In this document: in pieces, positions 1-59,030 of the stretch | Layout of the letters: the number at the start of each line of letters is the position of its first letter | How positions within the stretch are numbered: position 1 is the first letter of the stretch | NCBI GenBank assembly: GCA_905178155.1 | Contig: CAJINV010000010.1 | Coordinates: forward strand, 3,802,587-3,866,586 | Direction of reading: 5' to 3' | Length of the DNA: 64,000 nt | From: Amoebophrya sp. A120 | Taxonomy: Eukaryota; Protista; Dinoflagellata | Notes under the pieces: model-generated | The model's input: the letters and a program-made list of their open reading frames with translations, nothing else | Database searches by the model: none | Told to the model about the DNA's origin: nothing | Program-made: the position numbers and the translations under genes

Positions 1-1453
1 GTGGCGCCGAATGTCGTCACCTACACCTCGCTTATCCTGCGCAAAAGTATCGTAGTCGTACTAATTGCAAATATGCATGACAAATCTCCTTCCTAAGGTA
101 AAACAGCATTACAAATTCCACTTTTCTTCTTGCCAAAATTTGTGATGCAATTTATACTAGTACGATACTTTTGCAATGCATATCGCTAGTGGATGCCTGC
201 GCTAAGAGTGGCAACGTTCGGGGCGCATACGATGTGTTTCAAATGATGCAAGACGAAGGCGTGGCGCCGAATCTCTTCACCTACACCGCGCTGCTGGGTG
301 CGCACATGGACGCGGCCGCCGCGGAAAACGACAAGAAAATCCGTGGCGACATTATCCGGGATATTCTACTTAAAAACGTACTTACCCACCCCATAGTCAA
401 GATCGGGAATCGGCTAGACAAATCCACAAGCTTTGGCTGTTTCGCATGACAAATTTGGACGCGTAGTGCTGTTTGAGCTAGTTCAGCAGCATTACAGATC
501 TAATCTCTCATGCTGATTGGAGCATGACAAATTTCAAAACACCATTAGAAAATGCTTCTCGTGGGGCTCCGCATGAGAAACATTTTAAGCATGCAGATTT
601 GCATGACAACTATGGCGTGGGGACGTTTTTACACAGGATACGGGACGGCATTGGCCAGCTGCTGGACTTGATGCTAAGAGCCGAAAATTGGAGGCCTAAC
701 GATGCTTATGAAATGCGAATATGTCATCTGGGTCTGGAAGGTTCTTGCAACTTGTGATGCTAAATCTGAATCACGCAAAAAATCTGTGTTGCATGTTTAC
801 CTACAGCCGTCCTTTTTTACCAAGTTGAGAGGGAATTTCTCATGCAGGATAGGCATGATCGAGATCTCACAGAATTTGTCATCCTAGGTGCTGCATTCCA
901 GACCTCATGGGTCATGGAAAACCTACATGACAAATCTGGCATCCTTCCAGACCCAGACATATTTGCACTGGATATTGCTACCTTCCGAAGTATTTTCCAA
1001 CGCCAGTATGATAGGATGGGCAGGACAGAGGAGGCCAGGAAGCTGGTCCGCGAAATGGAGTATCAAGTGCGAATGTGTCTGGGTCTGGAAGATTGCTGAG
1101 GTTTGCGATGCAGTGTCTACTGCGTGGCCCAGTCCCAGAACATCCGCCACGCAAGTCCTAGCGTCACAGGTGTGCCTGAGACTGTTTCTTCAGGCCTAAT
1201 CCGCATGACAAATGCCTTCTGTTTTTGACAGCAAGAAGAGGGACTTTTGCTGCCCAAGCATGACAGATTTTTGGGTGATCTAAAATCTAAATGTGCACTA
1301 CAAGCTCACAGCTTCTTTATTCCAGCAGACCCAGACACACTTGCATTCGATATGGAAGCCGCGGCAGAAGCTGTAAGGGATGAGGCCATACTGGAGACAC
1401 CCGGTGCAGCCCAAAGCCACAGCACTGGCCTCCGTTCGTGCCCGCTGCCTTAA
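1..1453 (+). CDS. PPR protein, 3' part (duplicate of 10616-12068), interrupted by 4 introners
   Basis: Removing elements 33-182, 362-640, 707-974 and 1061-1352, each with one 5-bp TSD, gives a continuous frame VAPNVVTYTSLVDACAKSGNVRGAYDVFQMM...RSCPLP* (TAA ends at 1453), with P-type PPR motifs. Confidence 0.8.
33..182. mobile_element. Introner family C (about 150 bp; TIR TATNNNNGCAAAAGTATCGTA)
   Basis: TSD TCGCT at 28-32 and 183-187. Other copies start at 10648, 19847, 24631, 29780, 30974, 43162, 44234, 44903, 48872, 54349, 55076 and 58655. Confidence 0.9.
362..640. mobile_element. Introner family B (about 280 bp; TIR TATCCTGAGTAAAAACGTNCCCACACC)
   Basis: TSD CGGGA. Other copies start at 10977, 14915, 23477, 26651, 29342, 31543, 33899, 44445, 45106, 46846, 48368, 53951 and 57883, in both orientations. 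Confidence 0.9.
707..974. mobile_element. Introner family A (about 250-300 bp; TIR TATCAANTGCAAAAATGTCTGGGTCTGGAA), most abundant family
   Basis: TSD ATGCT/TTGCT. Other copies start at 1061, 15314, 19442, 20569, 26951, 28652, 29988, 31883, 32591, 34953, 42423, 43365, 45612, 46464, 47244, 47542, 47935, 49087, 53621, 54778, 56618, 57310 and 58293. Confidence 0.9.
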
Positions 1454-3197
1454 TCCACGTGAGGAAGTGCCGTCCAGTTGGGATCTGCTCGGCGGGGAAG
1501 CAGCGCTGGCTGTAATCTGGTAACCAAATGCGTGCGCGCGCGCGCGCAGAGCGCGCTGCGCTGCCACACTGCTTGGTCTTGCCGGTGCCTCCAGCTTTTG
1601 GGAGTGCAACGAACCCCGTCTGCCGTTTTTGTGACGAGTGTAGTTATACAACGCAGCGAGTTGCTGGTAAAAGAGGATCTCTGGAATTTAAATTTTTCAA
1701 AGCGGTAGATCACAAGCAAGAGCAACGATATGCATGTTTAAGAAAACAGACAACAAGAAGAGGCTATCATCTCCTGTGAAAAAAGACGCAAAACAAAAAT
1801 CACAAAGGGATAGATATATGAACAGCACTACGTGTATGATTTTTTTGATTTATTTAAAGGTATGAAACGGTATGAGATAGAGTGTAAACGACATCGAGGA
1901 TTTTCTCGGATCACGTCGTACCTAGGGCGACTGTGTTTCAAAAATGTAAATCTCGATCGGTCAATGCACGCTGGAACTAAAATGCTCACATCAAAAAACA
2001 CAAATCTGTAATGCAAATTTCGAAGAACCCACAGCACAAATTCGGAACAGAACTTTTTTACAAATCGTAGATGAAAATGCAACTCAAAGAAGTCGGCTCG
2101 TAGCAGAATGAAGGATGAACAGGATGTCGGTCTTTCGTATGAAATCGATCGCGCAAAAAAGAAGTGTCGTGCAGTGCTACTATGTCGTTTTCTATAGAGT
2201 TTAAAGTGCGTTTTCAAATATTTAGCTTTTCGGAATTGTCACACAACTGTCTCCCAGGGTCATGTCGTGCGCTTAAAGAATTCACGGTAGGCACGGTTAG
2301 ACTTTACCCCCCGAACCCGTTTGTTAACAGCTCTCGAGTACATGATCCAAAAAACTGCATGACAGATTTGAAAAAGCCGGTGATGATGATTTAGAGATTT
2401 GGAAAAAGGAGAAAAACAAAAACAACACCACGCGATGGGTTGAAAATAGGCTTGATGTGTTTTGATTTTTGTGTTCTGCCCTTTTTACATGACCAGTAGA
2501 CAGAGCAAAGGTAAGACTCTCGAGAAATATAGAGTGTTGGTTCGTCTTCTCGCTTTAACAAGTGTTTGGGACCAAACGAGAACAAAGTAGTCCCCGACAG
2601 GAGGGACCAGGACAAACGCAAACTTCGCCTTAACAACTTTTTGCACGGTCGTGTTTATCTAGCAGTGCCGCTATTTTCTTTTTTTTGGTGATCCGCATCC
2701 TCTACTGTTTCTTCTTATGCATCTTCGCCTCGGAGACGGAGGTAGTGGAAGAGGTAGTTTTCTTTCAGATCCGTTTTGAATTCACTTTTGTCTCTGAGAT
2801 TCAAATTGTATGGTCGTTGTGTTCGTGCGTCGTGCTTTCGTTTTCCTTTTCAAAATCGCTTTTGAGATGGTCGTGGACCATAATTTTCCGGCGCACGAAG
2901 ATCTGCTTTCTGGTTTTTCTGATCTTCTAGTCTTCCGCTCTGATCTTCCAAATATTCGCGAAAATGCTACTGGAAAAGATGTTGACGCTGCCACGATTTG
3001 TGACGGAGGTTGTCTTCTGCGCCACAGAGCAGTATTCTCAGAAACGCGGTTCGAAATCATGTATACGAAGACCAGCGCTATTCGGTTTCGAATCCGATTC
3101 GAGTTACTGTTTCTTGCGGAGGCACCGAAGTTGTAATTGAAATTCAAATATAGTACTTGTTACCATTAATAGTCGAGAACTAGATCTTCACTTCATC

Positions 3198-4180
3198 ATG
3201 GCCTCTTCTACGCTCCTTCCACCCGTGCTCGGGCTTGCCTTCGGGATTACCCTCCGCTATCTTTGGTTTTCGATGCTCGACGCGAACTATGCAGATAGAG
3301 GACAACTATTTCCACACCACCTCATCGCTTGTTGAAGGGCATTTTTCACAGCAAGGAAGACAAAGTTGAGAGTGCAGGTGTTGCATGACAAACTCAGGCC
3401 AGGACTGTATTTCCGTTTGGGATCTAAGTGCTTCAATATTGCGAAAAATACACTTGTGAGTTAGGAAAAGAAAAGTTGTCATGCTAGTACTGCCAAACGG
3501 CAGTGACAGGATTTGGAATTTTGCATGGCAAATGAGGAGGGGGGGACGAGTGATTTTACCATTTTCATACGAGCCACTCCATTCTTGAGGACGAACCCGA
3601 GCTGAATAGCCTATCTAAGCGGAAAATTCAAATTGTGTTTTTAGTGGTCGCACTTTGATGTATTGATGCAGGACATGCAAATGCATTTGATGGGTTGCGT
3701 TGGTTTGTCCTTCAAAGGAAGCGTTGGACGACGAGGGAGTGTTGGGTCGTCCTTCGCCTTTCAAGCGGCGCGTTTGGAGCAGTTGGACGTAGTCTCTGCA
3801 CATGACAAACTTTTGCTGTCATAGCAGACAGATTTGTGATGCTGTTTAATATATGTCCCTGAACAACAATTACTTAAAGCTACACTGAAACTACACTTTG
3901 ACTTTTTTCTTACATACCCCCCAATTACGAGTTACCAGCGGTTCCGCGAGACTGCTTTTTTGTACGAGCACGTGCACAAGTTCGACTTGGAAAAGCTTTA
4001 CCAGCCGTACCAAAATCTGAACTACCTGCCACCCCTCTTGTTCCTCTTTTTGTACCACGGGACTGCGACCGTCTTTCCGCACGACTTGTCCTCCTCCAAG
4101 TTGCTGTACTGGTGGTTCCTGTGCGGCGTCGACGTGTGCGTGTTTCTGTTGCTATTTTTGCTCGCGAAATGGAAAATCAC
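3198..4180 (+). CDS. PIGU: PIG-U 5' part (duplicate copy, truncated by the gap)
   Basis: Same sequence as 13813-14795, with introners at 3288-3569 and 3612-3916. Confidence 0.6.
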
Positions 4181-8939: not shown

Positions 8940-11900
8940 ATGGTCTCCGTGGTCTTTCGTCGCGTGCTTGCCGCTGCCGGCAGCATGTCCGTCTACTTGC
9001 ACGGAGAAGCGGTTCTGAAAGGGTTGCTGGGAGGTGGACATCGAGCCACTTTCTCGGAAATAACCAGTCTTCGGACCATGAGCAACGTGTTGAATGTTGG
9101 CCAGCACTTTGACGTTCATCCGGGCCTTGTGGTTGCCGTCCAGTTGCGGTCCCGGCCGGGAAGCAGCGGCGATGGGAAGAACTGGAATGGTAAAAAGCAG
9201 TCGAAAGGAAAGGGGCGGGGTCGGGGGCGAGGGGACGACGGCGGCAAGGGTGGTGGAAAAGGAAAGGTGGAGAGCTGCAACGTATTACAATGAAAAACGA
9301 TCGTCCCACGACGACCCCAGACGTTTCAGATATTTGTGTATGCATATTAAGGTTTTCAAATGCAAAACTCTTTACTTATCAATCTATGCATGCTTGGATC
9401 GGAAGACTGCCCCTGCTACTGCTTTCGATTGTTCTAAGTGTGCAAAGCAGCTCTTACACTACAAGCCCTCCTTGTGCTGGGCCTTTTTGCAAGACAAATT
9501 TTTGCTATCCTGGGTTGAACATTTATCGTCATGCAAATGAAAGGTCGCAAATGTTTCCATTGGTAACTTTGCAATACAAACGCTTCCACATTCTGGCGTT
9601 GGGGCACTTTTCGTTGTAATACAACGGAGATCCTAAGAAAGACCCGTGCCACGAGCGCTATATTTCGAAGCTACAGACTTACGCAAACACAGGCAATATT
9701 GAGGGCGCAGAAGCTGTTTTCAAGCTCATCCAACGAGACGCACACCTGTGCTTTACTGCCATCCACTACGACATGCTGATCAGCGCCTACGCCAAAAGGG
9801 GCCTTGTTTGGGGCGCAATAAATGTTATTCAGAGGATGCGCCAAGAAGAAAACATGGCGCCGACTGTCGTCACCTACAAGTCTTTGCTGACCTGCTACGC
9901 CAATGCGGGCAAACTGGAACGGAACTCAGACAGCACGCCAGAGGCTGTTCTGTCTGAGATGATGGAGTGCGACGGGGTGGCGCCGCATGTCGTCCTGAGG
10001 ACGCTTCTGAATGCCTACGCTGAGAGAGGCAACGGCCCGGGCGCAGACCGTGTTTTCCGAATAATGAAAGACGCACCAGGCCCGGCGCCGGATGTCGTCA
10101 CCTACAACATCCTTATCAAAGCCCACGTTCGGAATCGCGACGTTGATAGCGCATACGGCGTGCTTCAAATCATGAGAGACGCACGCGCGGCGCCGGACGT
10201 CCGCACCTACACCGCGCTAGTGGATGCCTGCGCTAGGAGTGGCAACGTTCGGGGCGCATACGAGTTGTTTCAAATGATGCAAGACGAAGGCGTGGCGCCA
10301 AATGTCGTCACCTACAACGTTCTCATAGCAGCCCACGCTCGGAAACGCGACGAACGGGGTCGTGCATGGGATGTGTTTCAAATGATGACAGACGCAGGCG
10401 TATCACGAGAAAAAAGTGTTACAGTAACACATTTGTTGGAGTTTCTGCATCACAAATTTTCTCTGCGTGGCAGAGAAAACTTGTAATGCGAAGATCATAA
10501 GGGAACACAGGAAGGAAACGAGGCTCCCAAGCATTTCCTGCATGAGAGAGGTTGTCTGTGTTGCCGGTCTTGCAACACAATGTGTAACTGTAACACTTTT
10601 TTCTTGCGATAAGGCGTGGCGCCGAATGTCGTCACCTACACCTCGCTTATCCTGCGCAAAAGTATCGTAGTCGTACTAATTGCAAATATGCATGACAAAT
10701 CTCCTTCCTAAGGTAAAACAGCATTACAAATTCCACTTTTCTTCTTGCCAAAATTTGTGATGCAATTTATACTAGTACGATACTTTTGCAATGCATATCG
10801 CTAGTGGATGCCTGCGCTAAGAGTGGCAACGTTCGGGGCGCATACGATGTGTTTCAAATGATGCAAGACGAAGGCGTGGCGCCGAATCTCTTCACCTACA
10901 CCGCGCTGCTGGGTGCGCACATGGACGCGGCCGCCGCGGAAAACGACAAGAAAATCCGTGGCGACATTATCCGGGATATTCTACTTAAAAACGTACTTAC
11001 CCACCCCATAGTCAAGATCGGGAATCGGCTAGACAAATCCACAAGCTTTGGCTGTTTCGCATGACAAATTTGGACGCGTAGTGCTGTTTGAGCTAGTTCA
11101 GCAGCATTACAGATCTAATCTCTCATGCTGATTGGAGCATGACAAATTTCAAAACACCATTAGAAAATGCTTCTCGTGGGGCTCCGCATGAGAAACATTT
11201 TAAGCATGCAGATTTGCATGACAACTATGGCGTGGGGACGTTTTTACACAGGATACGGGACGGCATTGGCCAGCTGCTGGACTTGATGCTAAGAGCCGAA
11301 AATTGGAGGCCTAACGATGCTTATGAAATGCGAATATGTCATCTGGGTCTGGAAGGTTCTTGCAACTTGTGATGCTAAATCTGAATCACGCAAAAAATCT
11401 GTGTTGCATGTTTACCTACAGCCGTCCTTTTTTACCAAGTTGAGAGGGAATTTCTCATGCAGGATAGGCATGATCGAGATCTCACAGAATTTGTCATCCT
11501 AGGTGCTGCATTCCAGACCTCATGGGTCATGGAAAACCTACATGACAAATCTGGCATCCTTCCAGACCCAGACATATTTGCACTGGATATTGCTACCTTC
11601 CGAAGTATTTTCCAACGCCAGTATGATAGGATGGGCAGGACAGAGGAGGCCAGGAAGCTGGTCCGCGAAATGGAGTATCAAGTGCGAATGTGTCTGGGTC
11701 TGGAAGATTGCTGAGGTTTGCGATGCAGTGTCTACTGCGTGGCCCAGTCCCAGAACATCCGCCACGCAAGTCCTAGCGTCACAGGTGTGCCTGAGACTGT
11801 TTCTTCAGGCCTAATCCGCATGACAAATGCCTTCTGTTTTTGACAGCAAGAAGAGGGACTTTTGCTGCCCAAGCATGACAGATTTTTGGGTGATCTAAAA

Positions 11901-12068
11901 TCTAAATGTGCACTACAAGCTCACAGCTTCTTTATTCCAGCAGACCCAGACACACTTGCATTCGATATGGAAGCCGCGGCAGAAGCTGTAAGGGATGAGG
12001 CCATACTGGAGACACCCGGTGCAGCCCAAAGCCACAGCACTGGCCTCCGTTCGTGCCCGCTGCCTTAA
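8940..12068 (+). CDS. Pentatricopeptide repeat (PPR) protein, possibly mitochondrial, with 6 introner introns
   Basis: Starts MVSVVFRRVLAAAG. Removing 9283-9621 (TSD CAACG), 10401-10611 (AGGCG), 10648-10797, 10977-11255, 11322-11589 and 11676-11967 gives one frame with tandem PPRs (PDVVTYNILIKAH, PDVRTYTALVDACARSG). Confidence 0.88.
9283..9621. mobile_element. Introner family E (about 320-390 bp; TIR TATTACANTGAAAA)
   Basis: TSD CAACG. Related copies at 18873-19258 (AGTTT) and 41998-42318 (GTCTC). Confidence 0.85.
10401..10611. mobile_element. Introner (TIR TATCNCNAGAAAAAAGTGTTACAGT)
   Basis: About 30-bp TIR and TSD AGGCG; removal restores DAGVAPNVVTY. Confidence 0.85.
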
Positions 12069-13812
12069 TCCACGTGAGGAAGTGCCGTCCAGTTGGGATC
12101 TGCTCGGCGGGGAAGCAGCGCTGGCTGTAATCTGGTAACCAAATGCGTGCGCGCGCGCGCGCAGAGCGCGCTGCGCTGCCACACTGCTTGGTCTTGCCGG
12201 TGCCTCCAGCTTTTGGGAGTGCAACGAACCCCGTCTGCCGTTTTTGTGACGAGTGTAGTTATACAACGCAGCGAGTTGCTGGTAAAAGAGGATCTCTGGA
12301 ATTTAAATTTTTCAAAGCGGTAGATCACAAGCAAGAGCAACGATATGCATGTTTAAGAAAACAGACAACAAGAAGAGGCTATCATCTCCTGTGAAAAAAG
12401 ACGCAAAACAAAAATCACAAAGGGATAGATATATGAACAGCACTACGTGTATGATTTTTTTGATTTATTTAAAGGTATGAAACGGTATGAGATAGAGTGT
12501 AAACGACATCGAGGATTTTCTCGGATCACGTCGTACCTAGGGCGACTGTGTTTCAAAAATGTAAATCTCGATCGGTCAATGCACGCTGGAACTAAAATGC
12601 TCACATCAAAAAACACAAATCTGTAATGCAAATTTCGAAGAACCCACAGCACAAATTCGGAACAGAACTTTTTTACAAATCGTAGATGAAAATGCAACTC
12701 AAAGAAGTCGGCTCGTAGCAGAATGAAGGATGAACAGGATGTCGGTCTTTCGTATGAAATCGATCGCGCAAAAAAGAAGTGTCGTGCAGTGCTACTATGT
12801 CGTTTTCTATAGAGTTTAAAGTGCGTTTTCAAATATTTAGCTTTTCGGAATTGTCACACAACTGTCTCCCAGGGTCATGTCGTGCGCTTAAAGAATTCAC
12901 GGTAGGCACGGTTAGACTTTACCCCCCGAACCCGTTTGTTAACAGCTCTCGAGTACATGATCCAAAAAACTGCATGACAGATTTGAAAAAGCCGGTGATG
13001 ATGATTTAGAGATTTGGAAAAAGGAGAAAAACAAAAACAACACCACGCGATGGGTTGAAAATAGGCTTGATGTGTTTTGATTTTTGTGTTCTGCCCTTTT
13101 TACATGACCAGTAGACAGAGCAAAGGTAAGACTCTCGAGAAATATAGAGTGTTGGTTCGTCTTCTCGCTTTAACAAGTGTTTGGGACCAAACGAGAACAA
13201 AGTAGTCCCCGACAGGAGGGACCAGGACAAACGCAAACTTCGCCTTAACAACTTTTTGCACGGTCGTGTTTATCTAGCAGTGCCGCTATTTTCTTTTTTT
13301 TGGTGATCCGCATCCTCTACTGTTTCTTCTTATGCATCTTCGCCTCGGAGACGGAGGTAGTGGAAGAGGTAGTTTTCTTTCAGATCCGTTTTGAATTCAC
13401 TTTTGTCTCTGAGATTCAAATTGTATGGTCGTTGTGTTCGTGCGTCGTGCTTTCGTTTTCCTTTTCAAAATCGCTTTTGAGATGGTCGTGGACCATAATT
13501 TTCCGGCGCACGAAGATCTGCTTTCTGGTTTTTCTGATCTTCTAGTCTTCCGCTCTGATCTTCCAAATATTCGCGAAAATGCTACTGGAAAAGATGTTGA
13601 CGCTGCCACGATTTGTGACGGAGGTTGTCTTCTGCGCCACAGAGCAGTATTCTCAGAAACGCGGTTCGAAATCATGTATACGAAGACCAGCGCTATTCGG
13701 TTTCGAATCCGATTCGAGTTACTGTTTCTTGCGGAGGCACCGAAGTTGTAATTGAAATTCAAATATAGTACTTGTTACCATTAATAGTCGAGAACTAGAT
13801 CTTCACTTCATC

Positions 13813-44200: not shown

Positions 44201-47200
44201 AGTCCCCGGAACCAGTCGGTGTCGCCAAGAGCTTATGAACAACTGCAAAAGTATCGTACTCGTAGTCGTATAAATGCATTACAAATTTCCTCAGCATGAG
44301 AAATAAAATTTGTAATGCGGATTTACCTCAAAAAAAGATTTGTAATGCATGACTGCAATACGAGTTCGAGTGCGATACTTTTGCACAGGATAGAACTTCC
44401 GCGGTGCGAATGCGGGGCGGGTTCAGTGACGAAATGACGGCGATTATTCCGAGTAAAAACATCTTCACACCAGAGTTGTCATGCAAATCTGCCTGCCAAA
44501 AATGTTTCTCGTGCGGAGCCCCATGCGAAGTATTTCCCCGTCGTGTTTTGGGGTTTGTGATGCTCAAACCAGCATGATATGCTAGATCTGCGATGCTGTT
44601 GGAGCTAGCTAAACAGGATTACACTAGTACGGGGCCAAATTTGTCATGCGAAACAACCAAAGCTGGTTGATTTGTCTAGCAGATTTTCCATCTTGACTCT
44701 GGTGTGGGCATGTTTTTACATAGGATAGCAATGGACGCGGGGTGTCAGTATTTGCTAAACCAGGACGCAATGAATAACAAGGCCACTGGGACAGGAGAAG
44801 GACCCTCCGGGGGAGATCAGAACGCCGCGAATTCCGGTTTTGGGAACAAGCAAATCAACGCGGAAGACGTGTTCCACGAAGCGAACATGCTGGCGAATCG
44901 GTTATATCCTGCGCAAAAGTATCCTAGTCGTAGTAGTTGCATTTATGCATTACAAATCTCTGTCTCAAGGCAAATCAGCATTACAAATTGAATTTGTAAT
45001 GCTGGGCTAACTTGTAATGCAATTCATACTAGTACGGTGCTTTTGCATTCCACCGGTTAGCGGAGTTGGAAACAGCGGCGGCGCAATTGAAGCACAACTT
45101 AACAGTATCCTGAGTAAAAACGTACCCACACCAGAGTTGTAATGCAAATCTGCATGCCAAAAGAGTTTCTCATGCTGAGCCCCATGAAAGGCATTTTCTA
45201 GTCGTGTTTTGGGATTTGTGATGCTATAATCAGCATGATATGCTAGGCCTGTGATGCTGCTGAACTACCTAAACAGGATTACAGTACAAGGACAAACTTG
45301 TCATGCGAAACAGCCAAAGCTGGTTGATTTGTCTAGCAGATTTACCATCTTGACTCTGGTGTGGGTACGTTTTTACTCAGGATAAACAGCCTTCGATCCG
45401 CTGGGGAAGCGGGGCGGGGGAGCGGACGCATCGGGGAAGGGGACCAAGAGGAAGGGGTCAATGTTGAGTTCCGGGGGCACCGTGGGGGAATTGGACGCTG
45501 CGGGGGACCAGAAGTCGAAAAACGCGGCGTTTGGGTTGAAGAGGGACGTCAAGTTGCCCCCCTTGCAGTTGAAGAACATTTGTCCGCCGGAATTTGTGCA
45601 GGAGCTGAACATATCAACTGCAAAAATGTCTGGGTCTGGAAGAATCCGAACTTGTGATGCTGTCTCTGGATTCTGAAAAAAATTGTATTGCATGACCAGC
45701 AAGAGGGTTCCAGTTTGTGCTACGCGGAGAGGGCATTTCTCATGCGGAAGGTGCATCAGAAAGGGTTCTAAAAATCTGTAATGCTAGGGCATACATCACA
45801 GACTATCATGGGTCATGAGAAATATGCATGACAAATCTCGCATTCTTCTAGACCCAGACATTTTTGCATTTGATAGAACAAAACGAGACAATCGGCGAAC
45901 TTGATCCAGAAAAACATCGACTTATTTATAATCCGCTCAGGTGTTGTTCCAATCTCAAACGTTACAATAGAATATGGAAATCTGTGATGCAAAAGTGCAT
46001 GATCTAGCCAATTCCAACTCTCATAGGGCTGCGCATGAGAAGTTCCGGAGCCCCAAACCCCACTACAATCTGGCGAAATTTGTATTGGAGAAAGTGAAAT
46101 GCTGTCCGAGTCTGTCATGCTCATCATGCAATACAAAACCCAGACTCTATTGCAACGTTTGAGATTGTAACACCTGAGCCGGTTATATTATTCAAATCCG
46201 AGGACTGTCCGCGGCCGCAAACCCGGCAGAAACAGTTGCATATGGAACCAAAAAAGTTCGTCACGATCACCCATGTTTGCATGGGTAAAGTTGCATGTTG
46301 ATCACAGTCTAATTTCTCTCTTGTAGTTGTGCAATACATGTGAAGAAAAGATTTCTCATGCAAAAACTGCAAGGCAATGTCAATGACTATGACGAACTTT
46401 TTTCACGCGATATTGCAGGATAAAGCGGTAAGGAGGAAGTCAAAGTTGATCGCAACTCGGGCATATGAAGTGCAAATATGTCTGGGTCTGGAAGATTGTA
46501 AACCTGTGATGCTGTGTTTGGATTCTAACAAAGTCTGTATTGCATGAGCAGCAAATAAAGAAGTCCAACTCCTGCTACGCGAAGAGGGCATTTGTAATGC
46601 GGGATAGGCATCGAGTTCGAGACGGCCTCAAAAAATCTGTGATGGTAGGGCGTACATCACAGATCGATCGTGGCTGATGCGAAACGTGCATGACAAGTGG
46701 CATCCTGCCAGACCCAGACATATTTGCAATGCATAGGGCACGGAAAATTCAACTGTTGAGTTCGGAGTACACAAGGACGTTGCGGTTGTATGAAGAAACT
46801 TTACGACGAGCTCTGCAAGCGGAGGAGCGGAAAAAGTCCCCGCGGTATCATATGTAAAAACGTTCCCACCCCATTGTCAAGTTGGGAACTTAGCAACACA
46901 AGTCCAGAAAGATCGGGACCGCGCATGACAAGTTGCAGGCCGTAGTGTAGTCGTGCATGGTACTTAGTAAGGACAACCGCATTACAAATCCATCTGCTTA
47001 TCCTGTTTGCAGCATTACAAATTCCAAAACACGACTGGCAATACCTCTCACGGACGAGATCATGCGCATTACAAATCTTCCTGTAATCGCAAATCTGCAT
47101 GACAACTCGGGGGTGGGGATATTTTTACTCAGGATACGCGGCGGGATTTGTACAGTGCTGCAGCCATGTCGCAGATGACCATGAGCAGCATGAGTCCGAG

Positions 47201-50200
47201 AATCAGCACCCGGGGCGGGCCGGGCAGCACGAGAGGGAGCCACTATCAACTGTAAAAATGTCTGGGTCTGGAAGAATCCAACTTGTCATGCGATTTTGGA
47301 TTCTAAAAAAATCTGTATTGCATGAGCAGCAAAGAGAGTCCAAATTTTGCAGCACGGAAAGAGCATATGTCATGCGGAATAGGCATCAGGAAGCCCTCTA
47401 AAAATCTGTGATGCTAGGGCATGCGTCACAGACTTGAGGAGTCACGCAAAATGTGCATGACACACCCGGCAATCTTCCAGACCCAGACATTTTTGCATTT
47501 GATAGCCACCAGATTTCCACGATCACCGCCGGTGGGCACAGTATCAAATGCAAAAATGTCTGGGTCTGGATGGTTGTAGCTTGTAATGCTGTTTTTGAAT
47601 TCTACAAATAATTTGTATTGCATGACCAGCAAAAGCAACAGGAGTCCAGTTAGTTTGTTCTACGCGGGGATGGCATTTCTCATGCGGAATAGGCAACATC
47701 AGGAAGGGTTCTAAAAATCTGTGAAGATGCTAGGTCATGCATCACAGACAATCACGGGTCATGCAGAATATGCATGACAAGCCGGGCAATCTTCCAGACC
47801 CCGACATTTTTGCATTTGATACGCGGCGAATTCGACCAATTTCCGCCCACGCCAAGCGGGAAAGCGAAAGTGTCGGGCATTGGGAAACTGGGGGTGGATC
47901 CGAGGGGGCAGGGGATGCATTTTATCAAATTCTCTATGGATTGTAAAAATGTCTGGGTCTGGAAACTTGTGATGCACGAAGTGGATGATAGCCGGACTGC
48001 AATACGCAGCCCAGCATGACATTTTTTTTGGCTGCAATGTCTTACGTATTCCGCATGGCAAACTGCGTTTTTGCATGACAGGTAAGAGGGCCTTTTCGTG
48101 CCTAGGCAACACAGATTCTCGAGTCATGCCAGACAAGCATGACAAACTTACATTCTTCCAGACCCAGACATTTTTGCATTTGATATTCTCCGACGAAAAT
48201 CAAATGCTGTGCGGGTGGATGAGGTAAGATGAAGTAAAAAGTACTTACTTGCTCTCTTGATGCGGCGCTGCTCTTTATAAATTAGTTGTAGTTCTAGTTG
48301 TGCTGCTGCTCTGTATGGCACGCGTCGTCCTTTGTCGTGCGTATACCACATGATGACAACATCGCAATATCCTGAGTAAAAACGTACCCACACCAGAGTC
48401 AGGATGGGGATTTTGCAACACAAACCTAGGAGTTTTGTGAGTCACGCATGACAAGTCGCACTCTGCAGTGTAGTGCAGGTTAGCAAGTGCAGCCGCATCA
48501 CAGATTCATCTGCTCATCCTGTTCACAGCATCACAAATTCCGAAACACGATTGGAAATGGCTCTCATGCGGATGCGCATTACAAGTCTTCCTGTCTTTGC
48601 AAATCTGCATTACAACTCTGGCGTGGGTACGTTTTTACTCAGGATAGCAACTCAGGATCGTCGCCGCGACAAACGCTTTAACCGAACTGACCAACGCGGT
48701 GAAGTACAAGAAGGAACGACAGCGGCAACGCCTGTTAGACCTCGCGAAAAAAGTGGACCCCCGCGTGTGGATCATGATGCAAATCAAGGGCCGGGTGCTG
48801 CTGAAGCGAAGGAAAGCCACGATCTGCGCACAGGCGCTGCGGGCGTGGAAACCCTGGCGCTTTTTGTGGTTTATCCTGTGCAAAAGCATCGCGCTCGTAG
48901 GTACTAATCGCACTTTCTGCAAGACATTTTTCTTTTTTCAAAGCTGAATCAGCATAACAGACGCATTCCATTCCATTTGTCATGCTGAGCTAAATTTGTA
49001 TTGCAATAGACTACGAGTGCGATATGTTTGCATCTCATATGGTTTTCGACGCACCGGTTTCTGGGGAGTTGTGTGAAGATCCAACATATCAAATGCAAAC
49101 ATATCTGGGTCTGGAAAGTTGTAATGGTAAAAGTGAATGATAGCTGCAATGCACTATTCAGCCGAGCATGACAAATTGTTGAGCTGCTACGTGTTGCGTA
49201 TCTCGCATGGCAAACTGCATTTTTGCATGACAGGTAAGAGGGTCTTTTTGTGATTATGCGTCACAGATTCGTGCGTCATGTCAGACATGCATGACAAATG
49301 CCAGAATCTTCCAGACCCAGATCGATATTTGCATTTGATCCACCAGTGGTGGCGGGTGAACTTCGCGTGGCACGAGAAGGCGTTCAAGCAGGTGTCTATC
49401 CAAGAAAAAAACGTTGTTAGTGCAAATTTGTGATGCGCAACATGCAAGATGATTGCGTCTGTCATGCTTGGCATGCGTCGCAGTGTCCATGAAAGGGCGT
49501 TTTCGCGTACTATCTGCGCATCACAGGTTTTTGCTGTCATGCGAGAGATATTTGTCATGCTGATCCTCCAAAAAAGGTGCACCTACAATGTTTTTTTCTT
49601 GCATAGTGTCGAAGCGGTTTCTAGTGTGGGAGAAGAAGTTTCTGGCGGAAAAAATCCGGCAGCAGGAATATGCCGCGAGGAAAGCGGATCAGCAGCGCGG
49701 GGGGTCCAAGGGGAGGGGAAACAAAACGGACCAAATCGCGGAAATGATGGCAAAAGCGGAAGCCAAGGCAAGAGCCAGCATGAGCATGGACGAGAAGACG
49801 GCGGTATAAGTAATGAAGTTTTTGAGCTTTTGTAACTTGCACCTGCTAAGCGTAANCGCAAACCCGGCAGAAACAGTTGCATATGGAACCAAAAAAGTTC
49901 GTCACGATCACCCATGTTTGCATGGGTAAAGTTGCATGTTGATCACAGTCTAATTTCTCTCTTGTAGTTGTGCAATACATGTGAAGAAAAGATTTCTCAT
50001 GCAAAAACTGCAAGGCAATGTCAATGACTATGACGAACTTTTTTCACGCGATATTGCAGGATAAAGCGGTAAGGAGGAAGTCAAAGTTGATCGCAACTCG
50101 GGCATATGAAGTGCAAATATGTCTGGGTCTGGAAGATTGTAAACCTGTGATGCTGTGTTTGGATTCTAACAAAGTCTGTATTGCATGAGCAGCAAATAAA

Positions 50201-53200
50201 GAAGTCCAACTCCTGCTACGCGAAGAGGGCATTTGTAATGCGGGATAGGCATCGAGTTCGAGACGGCCTCAAAAAATCTGTGATGGTAGGGCGTACATCA
50301 CAGATCGATCGTGGCTGATGCGAAACGTGCATGACAAGTGGCATCCTGCCAGACCCAGACATATTTGCAATGCATAGGGCACGGAAAATTCAACTGTTGA
50401 GTTCGGAGTACACAAGGACGTTGCGGTTGTATGAAGAAACTTTACGACGAGCTCTGCAAGCGGAGGAGCGGAAAAAGTCCCCGCGGTATCATATGTAAAA
50501 ACGTTCCCACCCCATTGTCAAGTTGGGAACTTAGCAACACAAGTCCAGAAAGATCGGGACCGCGCATGACAAGTTGCAGGCCGTAGTGTAGTCGTGCATG
50601 GTACTTAGTAAGGACAACCGCATTACAAATCCATCTGCTTATCCTGTTTGCAGCATTACAAATTCCAAAACACGACTGGCAATACCTCTCACGGACGAGA
50701 TCATGCGCATTACAAATCTTCCTGTAATCGCAAATCTGCATGACAACTCGGGGGTGGGGATATTTTTACTCAGGATACGCGGCGGGATTTGTACAGTGCT
50801 GCAGCCATGTCGCAGATGACCATGAGCAGCATGAGTCCGAGAATCAGCACCCGGGGCGGGCCGGGCAGCACGAGAGGGAGCCACTATCAACTGTAAAAAT
50901 GTCTGGGTCTGGAAGAATCCAACTTGTCATGCGATTTTGGATTCTAAAAAAATCTGTATTGCATGAGCAGCAAAGAGAGTCCAAATTTTGCAGCACGGAA
51001 AGAGCATCTGTCATGCGGAATAGGCATCAGGAAGCCCTCTAAAAATCTGTGATGCTAGGGCATGCGTCACAGACTTGAGGAGTCACGCAAAATGTGCATG
51101 ACACACCCGGCAATCTTCCAGACCCAGACATTTTTGCATTTGATAGCCACCAGATTTCCACGATCACCGCCGGTGGGCACAGTATCAAATGCAAAAATGT
51201 CTGGGTCTGGATGGTTGTAGCTTGTAATGCTGTTTTTGAATTCTACAAATAATTTGTATTGCATGACCAGCAAAAGCAACAGGAGTCCAGTTAGTTTGTT
51301 CTACGCGGGGATGGCATTTCTCATGCGGAATAGGCAACATCAGGAAGGGTTCTAAAAATCTGTGAAGATGCTAGGTCATGCATCACAGACAATCACGGGT
51401 CATGCAGAATATGCATGACAAGCCGGGCAATCTTCCAGACCCCGACATTTTTGCATTTGATACGCGGCGAATTCGACCAATTTCCGCCCACGCCAAGCGG
51501 GAAAGCGAAAGTGTCGGGCATTGGGAAACTGGGGGTGGATCCGAGGGGGCAGGGGATGCATTTTATCAAATTCTCTATGGATTGTAAAAATGTCTGGGTC
51601 TGGAAACTTGTGATGCACGAAGTGGATGATAGCCGGACTGCAATACGCAGCCCAGCATGACATTTTTTTTGGCTGCAATGTCTTACGTATTCCGCATGGC
51701 AAACTGCGTTTTTGCATGACAGGTAAGAGGGCCTTTTCGTGCCTAGGCAACACAGATTCTCGAGTCATGCCAGACAAGCATGACAAACTTACATTCTTCC
51801 AGACCCAGACATTTTTGCATTTGATATTCTCCGACGAAAATCAAATGCTGTGCGGGTGGATGAGGTAAGATGAAGTAAAAAGTACTTACTTGCTCTCTTG
51901 ATGCGGCGCTGCTCTTTATAAATTAGTTGTAGTTCTAGTTGTGCTGCTGCTCTGTATGGCACGCGTCGTCCTTTGTCGTGCGTATACCACATGATGACAA
52001 CATCGCAATATCCTGAGTAAAAACGTACCCACACCAGAGTCAGGATGGGGATTTTGCAACACAAACCTAGGAGTTTTGTGAGTCACGCATGACAAGTCGC
52101 ACTCTGCAGTGTAGTGCAGGTTAGCAAGTGCAGCCGCATCACAGATTCATCTGCTCATCCTGTTCACAGCATCACAAATTCCGAAACACGATTGGAAATG
52201 GCTCTCATGCGGATGCGCATTACAAGTCTTCCTGTCTTTGCAAATCTGCATTACAACTCTGGCGTGGGTACGTTTTTACTCAGGATAGCAACTCAGGATC
52301 GTCGCCGCGACAAACGCTTTAACCGAACTGACCAACGCGGTGAAGTACAAGAAGGAACGACAGCGGCAACGCCTGTTAGACCTCGCGAAAAAAGTGGACC
52401 CCCGCGTGTGGATCATGATGCAAATCAAGGGCCGGGTGCTGCTGAAGCGAAGGAAAGCCACGATCTGCGCACAGGCGCTGCGGGCGTGGAAACCCTGGCG
52501 CTTTTTGTGGTTTATCCTGTGCAAAAGCATCGCGCTCGTAGGTACTAATCGCACTTTCTGCAAGACATTTTTCTTTTTTCAAAGCTGAATCAGCATAACA
52601 GACGCATTCCATTCCATTTGTCATGCTGAGCTAAATTTGTATTGCAATAGACTACGAGTGCGATATGTTTGCATCTCATATGGTTTTCGACGCACCGGTT
52701 TCTGGGGAGTTGTGTGAAGATCCAACATATCAAATGCAAACATATCTGGGTCTGGAAAGTTGTAATGGTAAAAGTGAATGATAGCTGCAATGCACTATTC
52801 AGCCGAGCATGACAAATTGTTGAGCTGCTACGTGTTGCGTATCTCGCATGGCAAACTGCATTTTTGCATGACAGGTAAGAGGGTCTTTTTGTGATTATGC
52901 GTCACAGATTCGTGCGTCATGTCAGACATGCATGACAAATGCCAGAATCTTCCAGACCCAGATCGATATTTGCATTTGATCCACCAGTGGTGGCGGGTGA
53001 ACTTCGCGTGGCACGAGAAGGCGTTCAAGCAGGTGTCTATCCAAGAAAAAAACGTTGTTAGTGCAAATTTGTGATGCGCAACATGCAAGATGATTGCGTC
53101 TGTCATGCTTGGCATGCGTCGCAGTGTCCATGAAAGGGCGTTTTCGCGTACTATCTGCGCATCACAGGTTTTTGCTGTCATGCGAGAGATATTTGTCATG

Positions 53201-56200
53201 CTGATCCTCCAAAAAAGGTGCACCTACAATGTTTTTTTCTTGCATAGTGTCGAAGCGGTTTCTAGTGTGGGAGAAGAAGTTTCTGGCGGAAAAAATCCGG
53301 CAGCAGGAATATGCCGCGAGGAAAGCGGATCAGCAGCGCGGGGGGTCCAAGGGGAGGGGAAACAAAACGGACCAAATCGCGGAAATGATGGCAAAAGCGG
53401 AAGCCAAGGCAAGAGCCAGCATGAGCATGGACGAGAAGACGGCGGTATAAGTAATGAAGTTTTTGAGCTTTTGTAACTTGCACCTGCTAAGCGTAAGCCT
53501 ACCAGCATACTGTAAGAGTACTTAAACTTACATTTTTGTGGTCCCAGGCACACTGCCCTGACAGAATCAATCCAAATTCAAACTCACCCAGGCTCTCCTG
53601 ATGGCACCCAAGGAACGTGATATCGAATGCAAATATGTCTGGGTCTGGAAGGTTGGAACTTGTGATGCTATCTTTGGACTCTACTAAAAAAATCTGTATT
53701 GCATGACCAACAAGACGAGGAGTCTAGTTTGTGCTACGCGGGGAGGGCGTTTGTCATGCGCAGTAGGCATCAGGAAGGGTTCTAAAAGTCTGTGATGGTA
53801 AGGCATGCATCACACACAATCCTGGGCCATGCAAAACATGCATGACAAGTCTCAGAATCTTCCAGGCCCAGACATTTTTGCGTTTGATACGTGAGGACTT
53901 CGTGCGAAAGGATCTGTACACGAGAAGATTCCTTGCAGTGCATGGCGAAGTATCCTGCGTAAAAACTACGCCCTCACCGCATAGTCAAGATGGGAAACCA
54001 GCTAGACAAATAAACAAGTTTTGGTTGTTCCGCATGACATGTTTGGCATTGTAGTGTAATGATCTTGTTTCTGTTTGCAGCTAGTTCAGCACCGTCTAAA
54101 AAGGTCTAAACTTATTATGCAGATCGGAGCGTCACAACTTCCCAAACACGAGGGCTAGAAAATGCATTTCATCATGGGGATCCGCATGAGAAACGTTCTC
54201 TTCATGCCGCTTTGCATCACAGCTATGGGGAGGTGTGGTCCCCGTTTTTACATAGGATACGAAGGGAGAGTTATGATTAACGAGTATCTGAAGAAACGAC
54301 GGGACTATTACGCCAGCAAGCAAGCGATGGTATAATTTTTCTTGCTATTATGAATTGCAAGAGTATCGTACTCGTATAAATGCATTACAAATTTCCTCAG
54401 CATGAGGAATGAAATTTGTAATGTGGATTTACCTTAAGAAAAGGACTTGTAATGCAAGACTTGCATTTATGCGAGTGCGATACTTTTGCACAGGATAGCT
54501 ATTCGTTTACGGTTTTTTTCGAGATGAACCAATATGATGCCGTGGCAGTTGTACTATCCCCGCGTCGCGCAGCTGCAACACTAGGAAGGGCTTGATTTTC
54601 GACGAGGTTGCTATTGGTTTTATCTTTGTGCGCATTTATTTTCATACACATCTTTCTACTATCATGACCATGACCATGACATTGAAAACTGAATTCTTTC
54701 ACGACAGAAATTCCTCGGGCAATCCTCCAAAGGCGTTTTAATCGTGCCCCTCCGGCCCTTCCTCCCAAGTTACCTCCTATCAACTGCAAAAATGTAGTCT
54801 TGGTCTGGAAACCTGTGATGCAAGGAAGGGAATGGTGAGCACAGCACTGTAATGCGCTGCCCAGTAGGACAAAATTTTTCGGTGCTTCTGAGTTGCGTAC
54901 TCCGCATGAGAAGCTGCGTTTTTGCATGACAGCCAAGAGGAGCTCTCCGCGGCGACGCAATACAGAATTCAGAGTCCTGCCAGGCTAGCATGACAGATCT
55001 CGCAATCTCCCAGACCCAGACATATTTGCATTTGATACCTGCCCCGCGAAGACCAAATCGCCGAATTAGTCTCGATATCCTGTGCAAAAGCATCTACTCG
55101 TACTAATTGCAATTATGCATGACAAATCTTGTCCTTAAGGTAAAACAGCATGACAAATTCGAGCTCTCACGCTAAGGAGATTTGTAATGCATTTATACGA
55201 ATACGATACTTTTGCACAGGATACTCGAACAGCATGAAGGCCCTCGCGGAACTGCGAAAAATGGGTCCCGCGGCCGCAAAGCTCGCGAAAGAGCGGGAAT
55301 CGGAAAGTTCCCGGTATGGAAAGAAAAAAGTTTGTTACAGTCACTGACTTGCAGGTTTTGCATGAGAAATTTTTCCAGCATCACTGGTTTTTCTTGTATT
55401 GCAGAAACACTAGGGAAATCCCATATGAAGCTTGGCTGTAATGCATTTTTACGCATGTGAATCGGTTCGAGAGTGTACCCCAGTTCGCGAACTAGTTCGC
55501 CAACGTTCCGGGCATACGAAAAAGAGCAGAACCATACATAGTTCTCGTAGCAAATCCCAAAAAAAAGAGCGGAAATAGGTTGAAAGCAATCTCGCTGAGC
55601 GGCAGAGCATATCTTGCAGGCACCATATGGCGCAAAAAGTATGTGCACGGGAGAAGGTTGGAGCAACACGAAGTGCGCAGAAACAGTGGTGCGCCGACGT
55701 GTGCAGGTGGAGCGCCGAATTGAGAAAAAACGAAATGCCTGAGGTGGGCCAAAAAAAGTAGTAAGAAAGCTGCAAAAGAGCAAAAAAAAAAGAAAAAGAC
55801 TGACAGAAAAAGCGGCCCGCGAGGAGGCGCAACAAAGGAGGCGAGCACCAAGGAACGGCGGAGCCCACACCGGGGCGCGGCGCGCGATCAAAGAAGCAGA
55901 AGGGCCACACGGCAGGCGCAAGCGACTCTTTTGGCGCGCGCGCGCGCGATTTTGGTTTGTGGGGCACGAAGGCCCACGACAGGCGCAAGCGGCTCTTTTG
56001 GCGCGCGCGCGCGCGATTTTGGTTTGTGGGGTTACGGTGGGACGGCTGGCGGCCACACGATTTCGGAACGGTGCTTCCGATGAATGGGCACGCGAAGACT
56101 GAAGCTGTGCGCGTGGCACTGGTTTCAAACAGAAAACGGGCGAACGCTAGGACCGATCGCAGTCGTGGCTGCTTTTTTCTGTAGTGACAGACTTGAGGCC

Positions 56201-58636
56201 TGTGGTTCCCATCACGGTGCGCGATGCTGTGCCGCAGCACCATCTAAAACGACGGCGCTGCGGCATTGCAGGTACAGACCCGAACCGGGGGTCAGGTAAT
56301 ACCTGACCCCCCGGGTCGAGTAAGTACCAGAGAGATCAGGAGCGTACCTTTGGGTCAGGAACGCCCCCCCTACTTCTTCCCCCACCCGCATATTTTTTTG
56401 GCGCTGAGCATATCAAATGCCCTGTTTGTTCTAGAATATTTAGGCCCCGGGGCGCTATTGAACTGGTAGGTACATTGTTGAACCGCGGGACCAGTTGAAC
56501 TGATACACATGGCAGAATATTTTGTATTGCAAAAATGCGCATGGGTGATCGTGACGAACTTTTTTTGTTTGATACCCGACCGACGACGACCAGTGGACAT
56601 TCCTCGCAGCAGAATACTATCAAATGCAAAAATGTCTGGGTCTGGAAGAATGCAACTTGTGATGCTCCCTTTGGATTCCAAAAAAATCTGTATTGCATGA
56701 CCAGCAAGAGGCGCCCAGTTTGTGCTACGCGGGGAGGGCATTTGTCATGCGGGATAGGCATCAGGAAGGCCTCCAGAAATATGTGATGCTAGATCATGCA
56801 TTACAGACATCCTGAGTCATGCAAAATATGCATGACAAAGACAAACTGGCAACCTTCCAGACCCAGACACTTTTACATTTGATAAATACTGGATCGAGAC
56901 CGCAAACGACAGGTGGATCTGGGGATCATGGAGATAACCATGAAAAAGACAATCAAGAACAATCTCAGCCCACCCTGCAGAGCCAGAAATCGCAGCAACT
57001 CGCGCTGCAAAACGCGAAGAAGATGCAGCTATGCTGTGCAGAAGTGATAAGTACTATTACTATATGATCGTAGTACGGTAGTAAGTACAAGTAGTACTTA
57101 CAGGACAAATTTCGAGTTCCTGGGCAGGAACCAAGAATCAGAATCAATTTGCGATGCTAAGTAAAAAATCAGAAAGAAGACCGGGAGAACTGTCATGCAG
57201 GTCTGCAAATACTACGTAGTACTATGAGTGTGATAGTACTTTTGTATTGCATAACGGCTTTCGGAAGAGGAAAAATCTTCCACGATCAGGGTCCTTGATG
57301 GCGGATTGCTACGCGTTGCAAATATGTCTGGGTCGTCGGGAACAGCCAAACTTGTGATGCTGCCTTTGGATGCTAAAAAAATCTGTATTGCATGAGCAGC
57401 AAGAGGAGTCAAAGAAATTTGGCTACGCGGAGTAGAGGGCATTTGTCATGCAGGATGCGCATTGGTAAGGGACCTGCTTTAATGCTATGGCATACATCAC
57501 AGACATCATGGATCATGGAAAATGTCCATGACAATCTTGTCCTCTTCCAGACCCTGACATATTTTCAGTTGATAACTGCGGTTGTTTAACGAGTTTGGAA
57601 AACAAGTTGTGAAGCAACCATATGGGATTCTCAAACGTTACATTCTCAACTGTTACATGATATGAGCCGCCAGACGATCAAGCTACCTCGCATGACAAAT
57701 CCCCGAATGGCCAATCAGCCCCTAAATCTGTGCCGAATTTGTGATGCGAGAGCTGCAAGCTTGCCCCTTTCACTGTTGCGGTTCTTGCATCACAAAGCCA
57801 TGCTACAGCTGAGAATGTAGTGTTTGAGAACGCCATAAACCAATCCCAGCGGCGGACGCGGAGATGTTTTTAACTCTCTCCATATCCTATGTAAAAACGT
57901 TCCCACGACCCCATAGTTGTCATGCAGGTTTGCAAGGACCACAGGAACATTTGTAATGCGCATCGACATGAGAAATTTGAATTTCTAGTCGTGTTTTGGC
58001 ATTTGTAATGCTGTAAACAGGATAAGGAGATGGAGTGCTGATGCGACTGTCCTTGCTAACCTGCACTGCAGTACAAAGACCAACTTGTCACTCATGGCTC
58101 CCAAATATTAAACTCCTGGGTTTGTGTTGCAGAGAGAGTTCGCATCTTGTTGACTATGGGGTGGGGACTTTTTTACTCAGGATACTCCAACCCCTTTTCC
58201 GGTGAGCGGGGGACGGACATCCACCGACTAGGGTCGCAGGTGAAAGAAGCGGCCATGCTGGCACCGGTAGGGATTGGGGCGGAGAAGAGTAATACGCATC
58301 GCAAATATCGTCCCTGGATGTCTGGAAGGATGCGAACTTGTGATGTGCATTTCACAACACACACAAAAAATCTCTCATGCAGAGGCAGCAAAAGATGCCC
58401 ATTTCTTGTCACCAAAATGGGGCGACATTTGTCATGCGGATTCGGCAATGCGAAAGCTTCTCGAAATCTGTGAAGATGCTAGGGCTTCCATGACAGACCT
58501 TCTGCGTCATGCAGAAACAGCATGACAAAAATCTGCACTCTTCCAGACCGGGACACTTTTGCATTTGATAAGTAACAGTGGGGCCATGTCGGTGGAGAAA
58601 CGAATCTCGATTCAGTCCGGGTTCACGGTGGGATGA
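41228..58636 (+). CDS. Large hypothetical protein with coiled-coil and IQ-like motif, more than 30 introner introns plus several GT-AG introns; internal 3.6-kb assembly duplication
   Basis: Removing each element plus TSD chains many short exons in one frame from MAASIPLPEF through SCVKIQQWWRVNF (IQ-like) and PFLPSYLPREDQIAELV to ...SGFTVG*. Junctions around 57050-57255 are uncertain. Confidence 0.7.
45927..46187. mobile_element. Introner family I (TIR TATAANCNGCTCAGGTGTT...CAATCTCAAACGTT)
   Basis: TSD TTATT. Possible relative at 57621-57837 (TSD AACCA). Confidence 0.8.
46216..53496. repeat. Tandem duplication 46216-49855 / 49857-53496 separated by a single N
   Basis: Offset 3641 with identical ORF sets; one difference noticed (A at 47367 versus C at 51008). 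Confidence 0.9.
46241..46412. mobile_element. Introner family H (about 170 bp; TIR TATNNNNNNAAAAAAGTTCGTCA)
   Basis: TSD TTGCA. An opposite-orientation relative at 55315-56574 carries a nested element. Confidence 0.82.
55458..56507. mobile_element. 1050-bp TG..CA element (solo-LTR or Ginger-like) nested in a family H introner
   Basis: Ends TGAATCGGTTC...GAACTGATACA (imperfect inverted repeat), flanked by CATG at 55454-55457 and 56508-56511; internal tandem repeat 55913-56031 and hairpin 56287-56312. Confidence 0.65.
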
Positions 58637-59030
58637 TTGTAGGGGGGATCGTGTTATGCACTGCAAAAGTATCGTACTCGTATTGCAATCATGCATTACA
58701 AATCTTCTTTTTCAGCTGCATCTGCATTACAGGTTTTTATTTCTCATGCTGAGGAAATTTGTAATGCATTTATACGAGTGCGATTCTTTTGCAGTTTATA
58801 GTTATACGTGTGGTCGTTCATCTTCTCTGGCGTAAAAAATTAAAATTTTACAAAATTGAGTTTAGCATCCTGTGTTTCAAATGTACCACCTATGAAATTC
58901 ATCTCTCTTCTCGAGTTTCGACGTAATCACGGTTTTCACAAGATAAAGCCTCAACTGTCTAGGTTCCTGTAGTTGTAATCAATCTAGACGGATAAGTACT
59001 GAAGTACTAAAACAACTGCTTTACTTAATA

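Follow-up and report, generated by a model that had tools for sequence, protein, structure and literature searches.

Introner-bearing genes in the window

We analysed a 64,000-nucleotide stretch of the Amoebophrya sp. A120 genome (assembly GCA_905178155.1, contig CAJINV010000010.1, positions 3,802,587 to 3,866,586, forward strand), here called the window, for the introners that interrupt its genes. In this parasitic, dinoflagellate-type genome, small transposons stand by the dozens inside essential genes and are removed from the RNA. The elements belong to a known class, the A120-type introners (Farhat et al., 2021; PMC7789003); statements on this and the other papers cited refer to those portions of them that were available to us. 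Family-seeded curation gave 74 distinct introner elements between 9283 and 58806. A preliminary description of the window had reported about 90, because 16 further copies (6 + 10) in two assembly duplications were counted twice. The first duplicate (1..4180, equal to 10616-14795 at 99.98%, with six elements) adjoins a 100-N gap. The second (49857..53496, equal to 46216-49855 at 99.97%, with ten elements) follows a single N and is not duplicated in the orthologous locus of a second assembly, L027.

The host genes all lie on the + strand, on which all features are given here. The PPR gene (8940..12074) carries six introners (9283-9621, 10401-10611, 10648-10797, 10977-11255, 11322-11589, 11676-11967). 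With the elements removed it has a 519-aa frame with a match to Pfam PPR_2 (E = 2.7e-40), and RNA joints were found for 11322 and 11676. The PIG-U-like gene (13813..21730) carries twelve (13903-14184, 14227-14531, 14915-15196, 15314-16069, 16136-16344, 16541-16874, 17422-18718, 18873-19258, 19442-19708, 19847-20033, 20093-20321, 20569-20841) in a 1017-aa frame, with RNA joints at the first nine; its Pfam PIG-U match is weak (E = 0.009, one exon) and under the cut-off. Two further introners (23477-23755, 24631-24779), both with perfect 5-bp repeats, lie in an unnamed gene (23477..24779) whose frame is open across both.

The gene at 25686..34750, named PP1-like from its motifs, carries 15 introners (26651-26929, 26951-27211, 28652-28907, 28942-29248, 29342-29642, 29780-29928, 29988-30239, 30637-30856, 30974-31135, 31543-31821, 31883-32147, 32591-32856, 32902-33223, 33555-33861, 33899-34178) and two GT-AG introns (30329-30520, 33279-33488). 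After removal its frame has 1560 aa; its last exon had no Pfam match. GT-AG intron 30329-30520 encloses a decayed A-family element (30348..30490), whose left end has no partner and whose right end is lost. A C-family element with a 4/5 repeat (34953..35225) lies 3' of the PP1 stop, as does a solo 70-bp fragment (34798-34868) that resembles element interiors in many loci. Element 38845-39128 (38844..39132) has no target duplication, ends in ACA and lies in a spliced transcript.

Another unnamed gene has 24 introners in its first part (41228..49803: 41358-41577, 41623-41939, 41998-42318, 42423-42685, 42734-43039, 43162-43311, 43365-43626, 43701-44011, 44234-44392, 44445-44727, 44905-45054, 45106-45384, 45612-45875, 45927-46187, 46241-46412, 46464-46735, 46846-47136, 47244-47504, 47542-47821, 47935-48185, 48368-48646, 48872-49039, 49087-49340, 49397-49605), supported by frames and, from 46241 on, also by comparison with the ortholog. 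It likely continues at 53621..58806 with 13 more (53621-53889, 53951-54259, 54349-54497, 54778-55037, 55076-55223, 55315-56574, 56618-56884, 57030-57253, 57310-57574, 57621-57837, 57883-58184, 58293-58570, 58655-58806). Introner 54349-54497 sits within a GT-AG intron (54329-54708). Canonical donors within the window read GTA(C/A/T).

Removal of each element plus 5 nt opened the frames of the PPR, PIG-U-like and PP1-like genes and of both parts of the gene that starts at 41228. When removal lengths of +3 to +7 were tried, only +5 kept the frame at 57 of the 63 coding elements, the other six lying near segment ends and being uninformative. Element 48368-48646 is an exception to the earlier claim that element plus 5 nt restores the frame, and needs +4. 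All three interruptions of conserved motifs quoted in that description are present (29780, 30637 and 14227), the repeat of 14227 matching at only 2/5 positions.

Element architecture and families

Elements were detected by searching for TA[TC]...[AG]TA pairs flanked by a 5-bp repeat, followed by the family-seeded curation; a greedy detector that started from terminal inverted repeats (TIRs) was too noisy and was superseded. The architecture first described was borne out. Elements start with TAT in 70 cases and with TAC in 4 (n = 74; the search itself demanded TA), and 70 of 74 end in ATA, with single cases of GTA (41623), ACC (44905), ATC (49087) and ACA (38845). The perfect flanking direct repeat is 5 bp long in 53 of 74 elements, 4 bp in one and 6-9 bp in none. 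Mean repeat identity was 0.90 at 5 bp vs 0.23-0.34 at 2-4 and 6-9 bp, which sets the length sharply at 5. In the de-duplicated sequence 49 matches combined TIRs with a 5-bp repeat, while 20 dinucleotide shuffles gave none in 19 and one in the remaining one. TIR positions 11-13 are A in 62, 66 and 68 of the 74 elements at the 5' end and in 68, 67 and 72 at the 3' end.

The elements fall into ten terminal types by eye, and clustering of interiors gave nine multi-copy groups and 13 singletons. Families are present in both orientations (C 14/7, B 10/3, A 7/5), and splicing was seen in both. Target sites showed no base preference. Stops occur in all three forward frames in 69 of 74 elements.

RNA and DNA evidence for removal

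The elements are miniature inverted-repeat transposable element (MITE) insertions that duplicated their target, lie in both orientations, and are removed from RNA together with 5 nt. Joints in runs X3-X6 skipped element plus 5 nt at all 11 elements in 11256-19846, including the copies of 756 and 1297 bp; among the listed joints of this interval, four others fall inside elements. The 1297-bp copy (17422-18718) was spliced despite a 299-bp tandem duplication (93%) at 17928-18613. Record 9 of X3 skips six elements and also GT-AG intron 33279-33488, and its distances of 58 and 189 are exactly those predicted. As this record also lacks the GT-AG intron, it represents spliced RNA. Contig spacing supported removal from RNA of six elements beyond the 11. 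The raw-read runs X9 and X10 contributed 13 and 5 reads, leaving the locus uncovered.

In the DNA-type run X1, contigs pass unbroken from exon into element at a unique depth of 42-50; depth over the elements is far above unique depth and is not a copy number. The preliminary description had taken the elements for non-autonomous TIR DNA transposons removed from pre-mRNA and had proposed checks by RNA mapping and genomic reads. This reading is supported: the RNA joints skip the elements, the X1 contigs retain them across exon-element borders, and orthologous sites are found empty with one target copy.

Recent insertion

A scan of metagenome contigs with the C-family end gave at least 128 loci, of which 80 were listed, all from one other assembly. 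The listed loci hold 399 distinct elements, with a perfect repeat of 5 bp in 308, 4 bp in one and 6 bp in none. One of these loci, L027, was compared with 46188-64000 of the window. Exons were 86-100% identical. Among 23 window elements compared, 11 were shared and 12 absent from L027, where ten of the 12 sites show one clean 5-bp target and that of 48368 a 4-bp target. At 58655, L027 carries an independent insertion of a different family 1 nt away. L027 also has nine private elements, giving nine reciprocal cases of an empty site. These empty orthologous sites with a single target copy prove recent insertion with target duplication.

One cut register

The intron consists of one repeat base, the element and four repeat bases (N+TAT...ATA+NNNN), and this single register fits every informative junction. 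In repeats whose two copies are not identical, the RNA tells which copy was retained. The left copy was retained at positions 1-4 (11322, 13903, 14227, 16541, 19442) and the right copy at position 5 (11676, 16136, 19442). For intron 11675..11971 (element 11676-11967), the joint from 11669 to 11967 in X3 and X4 (a skip of 297) removes left position 5 and keeps the right one, allowing at most four left letters. The joint from 16129 to 16344 in X5 also allows at most four (intron 16135..16348, element 16136-16344), and that from 19438 to 19711 in X3, X4 and X5 allows two to four (intron 19441..19712, element 19442-19708). For intron 13902..14188, around the decayed element 13903-14184, the joint from 13901 to 14189 in X5 and X6 requires at least four. 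The allowed counts therefore meet only at four.

Bounds of contig pieces agree with this register at 30974 (at least four) and 44234 (at least three). At 38845 the exon ends at 38843 (TAT-2), as the register predicts (X3 record 12); the exon arithmetic there fits ACA+4, the sole YAG-acceptor solutions among 8, which is suggestive. Of ten polarised repeat changes, eight lie in the copy that the register makes intronic and the other two are synonymous exonic changes. The register also predicts that all nine predominant A120 classes start with N-T, as they do in Table S4 of PMC7789003. At this register neither position +1 nor any of the last four bases is constrained across the 74 elements. Only one of 74 then has GT-AG ends, and none at any other shift, so that the elements mostly lack GT-AG ends, as first described.

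Element 48368-48646 is an exception, with a 4-bp target duplication and an ancestral frame that needs element plus 4 nt to be removed. With the 4-bp duplication, a strict rule would frameshift the gene, which makes this element a natural test of such a rule. The preliminary description needs correction in two points: the cut keeps to one register instead of falling anywhere in the duplication, and +5 fails at 48368. In the parts of the open literature available to us we found neither the register, nor the polarised end constraint described next, nor the polymorphism between orthologs; Fig. 3 and Figs. S19-S25 of PMC7789003 may show part of the register.

Polarised constraint on the element ends

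Without requiring TAT, 425 end pairs were detected, 378 of them with a repeat of at least 4/5 and 362 distinct; a codon model oriented 273 relative to the transcript. At the 5' end of these 273, T+2 and A+3 were found in 273 and T+4 in 267. At the 3' end, A-7 was found in 273, T-6 in 271 and A-5 in 267. T+2, A+3 and A-7 are thus invariant, while T+4 varies six times, A-5 six times and T-6 twice. The asymmetry has p = 0.031 at TIR position 3, with the same arithmetic at position 1. Deviations came from several families and loci, one TAC case being common with the window. Among six further deviating elements in unoriented loci, five lean the same way and one is uninformative.

Since both orientations are spliced, the element must carry its signals symmetrically, and yet the constraint on its ends is not symmetric with respect to the transcript. 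Simple mutation bias is no explanation for the two asymmetries, because they implicate opposite strands. Neither a transposase nor a stem would be expected to constrain the two ends differently. The polarity is consistent with a 5' end that acts like a donor and with a candidate branch adenosine; it speaks against a cut guided by the stem only or an artefact of reverse transcriptase.

Splicing mechanism

On balance we think it probable that these MITE insertions are spliced by a relaxed U2-type spliceosome, with U+2 A+3 U+4 as the donor core, A-7 behind a U-tract as the branch, and a 3' cut set by distance. The TAT of the element would supply +2U, +3A and +4U of the donor, with no demand on +1. 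For the branch, the likely adenosine is the one that opens the terminal ATA (-7), preceded by a U-tract at -19 to -15; the 3' cut site would be chosen by its distance and not by an AG. Of the features of U2-type introns, GT...AG occurs in one element of 74, and the donor +2U and +3A and a branch-like A near the 3' end are present. TAT...ATA reads identically on both strands, so an insertion anywhere in an exon would yield a frame-neutral intron. The broader statement is about an even bet: the spliceosome would ignore +1, -2 and -1 and read a three-base palindromic end as donor core (U+2 A+3 U+4) and as branch (A-7), with the 3' cut by distance, and under this one rule an insertion by any of at least ten families, whatever its orientation and target, would become a frame-neutral intron. 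U2, U4 and U6 snRNAs and U1 proteins are present in A120, and snRNP27 and U1 snRNA were undetected (PMC7789003). Loss of SNRNP27K goes with a preference for +4U (PMC10581693).

Several points weigh against a relaxed spliceosome. Its role is one that we infer, and the branch is predicted. Runs X3-X6 are contigs flagged "RNA?" from two samples of one study. The lower bound of the register comes from one listed joint (13903) and the piece bounds, and the basis for 48368 is the 4-bp empty site in L027 and a frame test with three acceptors. The codon model left 89 of 362 elements unoriented; its strand calls in control L027 were correct in 14 of 14. In the window A-7 is found in 73 of 74 elements, 41623 (GTA end) being without it. 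An end-to-end stem is predicted in 69 of 71 elements, terminal pairing exceeding 0.5 in only 42, and such structure may matter. Neither a significant drift toward G at +1 (8 vs 2, p = 0.11) nor a drift toward AG at the 3' end (4 vs 5) was seen. At +5, C stands above G (44 vs 24 of 74), and C at this position pairs poorly with the U6 ACAGA box.

The stem is the core of one unlikely, though far from negligible, alternative, in which a non-spliceosomal or separate machine recognises the stem of the TIRs and cuts 1 nt and 4 nt beyond it, at set distances, as proposed for euglenid introns, which are excised as circles (PMC11282704). The folding of 69 of 71 elements end to end would suit such a machine, as would the failure to detect U1 snRNA in A25 and A120 (PMC7789003), and the change of A-5 to G preserves a U-G wobble with T+2. 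However, 13903 was spliced without a predicted stem, and 11322 and 31883 at a terminal pairing probability below 0.05. At TIR position 3 the stem-breaking change of T+4 to C or G occurred six times and the wobble-keeping change of A-7 to G in 0 of 273, the reverse of what a stem predicts; among 399 elements, pairing at TIR positions 4, 5 and 7 is limited to 217, 234 and 164, respectively. We regard as improbable a sliding cut within the duplication, for example by exon pairing, of which four left letters would merely be the commonest outcome. It would accommodate the +4 of 48368 and the splice position that PMC7789003 terms variable, and only seven of the 11 listed joints are informative. Nevertheless, a single register accounts for all the informative joints, for the polarised repeat changes and for the N-T that opens all nine predominant published classes.

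A hairpin between direct repeats is a known recipe for false introns, so the joints could be template switches of reverse transcriptase, or else the elements could be excised from DNA at some life stage. The DNA and RNA runs come from different samples, and X1 has 2126 joints beyond those listed. We hold both possibilities to be very improbable, since joints are present at a repeat match of 2/5 (14227) and apparently 0/5 (38845), the end constraint depends on transcript direction, and X1 contigs cross exon-element borders unbroken. In addition, exon identity to the ortholog remains at 86-100%, even though stops close every forward frame in 69 of the 74 elements.

Splice position and mechanism were left open when this class was first described in 2021, and a 2024 review continues to regard them as unresolved (PMC11282704). 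From the fixed register and the three invariant positions follow predictions for the branch nucleotide and the donor core, with 48368 as a natural exception, and via the register tens of thousands of intron borders could be annotated correctly. If the spliceosome does the splicing, few known splice-site codes would be as relaxed as this one, and it would then be clear why the protein stays unchanged although two close genomes differ at 21 of the 32 introner sites in a 12-kb stretch.

Comparison with known systems

The published A120 introners have the motif TAT-N7-AAA, inverted repeats, a length of about 240 nt, RNA-validated non-canonical ends, many families and no transposase (PMC7789003). 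The TAT, seven variable nucleotides, AAA and 5-bp direct repeats match the window elements, which upholds the link to Farhat et al. (2021) first made in the preliminary description. The direct repeats were given there as 3-5 nt (5 bp in the legend of Fig. S19); its authors found no signature and left the border position unknown. Relative to that account, the window adds one register, a polarised end constraint, presence/absence polymorphism in a close ortholog and a common internal motif.

Introns of Fritillaria borealis (PMC11282704; bioRxiv 10.1101/2025.08.15.670264) are also MITE-derived with TIRs and a target duplication, and are removed by an adapted U2 spliceosome; the tunicate case shows such an adaptation of a U2 spliceosome to be possible. 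However, they have mostly AG-AC or AG-AT ends and a preferred target, whereas in the window only T+2 is fixed within the end dinucleotides and there is no target preference. Euglenid nonconventional introns (PMC11282704) share a TIR stem near both ends, duplication-like repeats and fixed offsets of the cut from the stem. They carry CAG at +4..6 and CTG at -8..-6, pyrimidine-purine borders and circles, in contrast to TAT at +2..4, ATA at -7..-5 and a polarised constraint in the window, whose end profiles did not show the CAG/CTG motif at those positions. The TIR introners of algae and Suessiales (Gozashti 2022, PMC9860276) are likewise non-autonomous DNA transposons with the duplication absorbed and mRNA length unchanged, but they carry or co-opt GY and AG, while the window has a single GT-AG element in 74 at the inferred register.

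Mobilisation

All families have TAT-N7-AAA in common, and their terminal decamers come partly from one pool. The internal motif GCAT(G/C/T)A(C/G)AAA, counted in both orientations, had 118 matches in 21.3 kb of elements vs 2 in 34.7 kb outside, both of the latter in the decayed copy at 30348. The shared ends and internal motif suggest one binding factor, likely the transposase. The commonest distance between copies of the internal motif is 30-34 bp, followed by 15-19 and 45-54 bp, which suggests a phased protein-binding array.

The preliminary description had proposed a search for long copies with the same TIRs and a transposase open reading frame (ORF). Within the window and 531 kb of loci, neither a transposase nor an autonomous partner sharing these TIRs was found. 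Thirteen ORFs from long copies had no Pfam family above the cut-off; ORFs in the long copies 15314, 17422 and 55315 and in loci L002, L013, L040 and L046 likewise gave none. The long copies were rejected as autonomous elements, being ordinary elements with internal inserts. Locus L032 (476-2934) has C-family ends and a perfect 5-bp repeat enclosing 2459 bp, with a 414-aa ORF on the minus strand that had no Pfam and no Atlas match. Viral contigs had no match to the C-family end.

Judging from the 5-bp duplication, our guess is an integrase-like (Ginger2/TDD-like) transposase acting in trans. TDD-4 and TDD-5 likewise make 5-bp duplications, by an integrase-like transposase (PMC2836005). Ginger termini are TGTNR and Ginger2 prefers RTATAY, whereas the window termini are TAT, with no TGTNR and no target preference. 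PMC12130899 describes an introner family of A120 that has TIRs together with LTR-integrase-like ORFs; in the abridged form of its Dataset S2, three TIR motifs and the genus name had no match that would tie the window elements to a numbered family.

Several long C-family copies in both assemblies share a 300-bp internal piece without coding signal (15430-15930; L002, L013, L046). Element 55315 contains an insert of about 1054 bp (55446-56510; 206 bp in L027) with TG...CA ends, short imperfect inverted ends and an apparent 4-bp CATG duplication. This insert is a different mobile element and had no Pfam match.

Other features of the window

Rfam gave no matches in the window. A spliced transcript without a long ORF covers 37739-40190 (X3 record 12) and holds a 55-bp repeat (38649/40044) and a 48-bp repeat (39498/39746); it had no Rfam match and is a possible small-RNA host. 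An Ala/Lys-rich ORF of about 170 aa lies at 37280-37760, where no coverage by RNA-type runs was noted. In RNA-type contigs the region 3' of the PPR gene (12130-12990) is deeply covered and contains variant letters, which points to an expressed sequence with multiple copies. A 3.7-kb block (59030-62698), absent from L027, holds a degenerate GC-rich tandem array with periods of about 46-59 and 105 and a 39-N gap. At 6875-8483, a motif of 46-58 bp occurs three times (6875, 7512, 8420), together with a 48-bp palindrome at 7433-7480.

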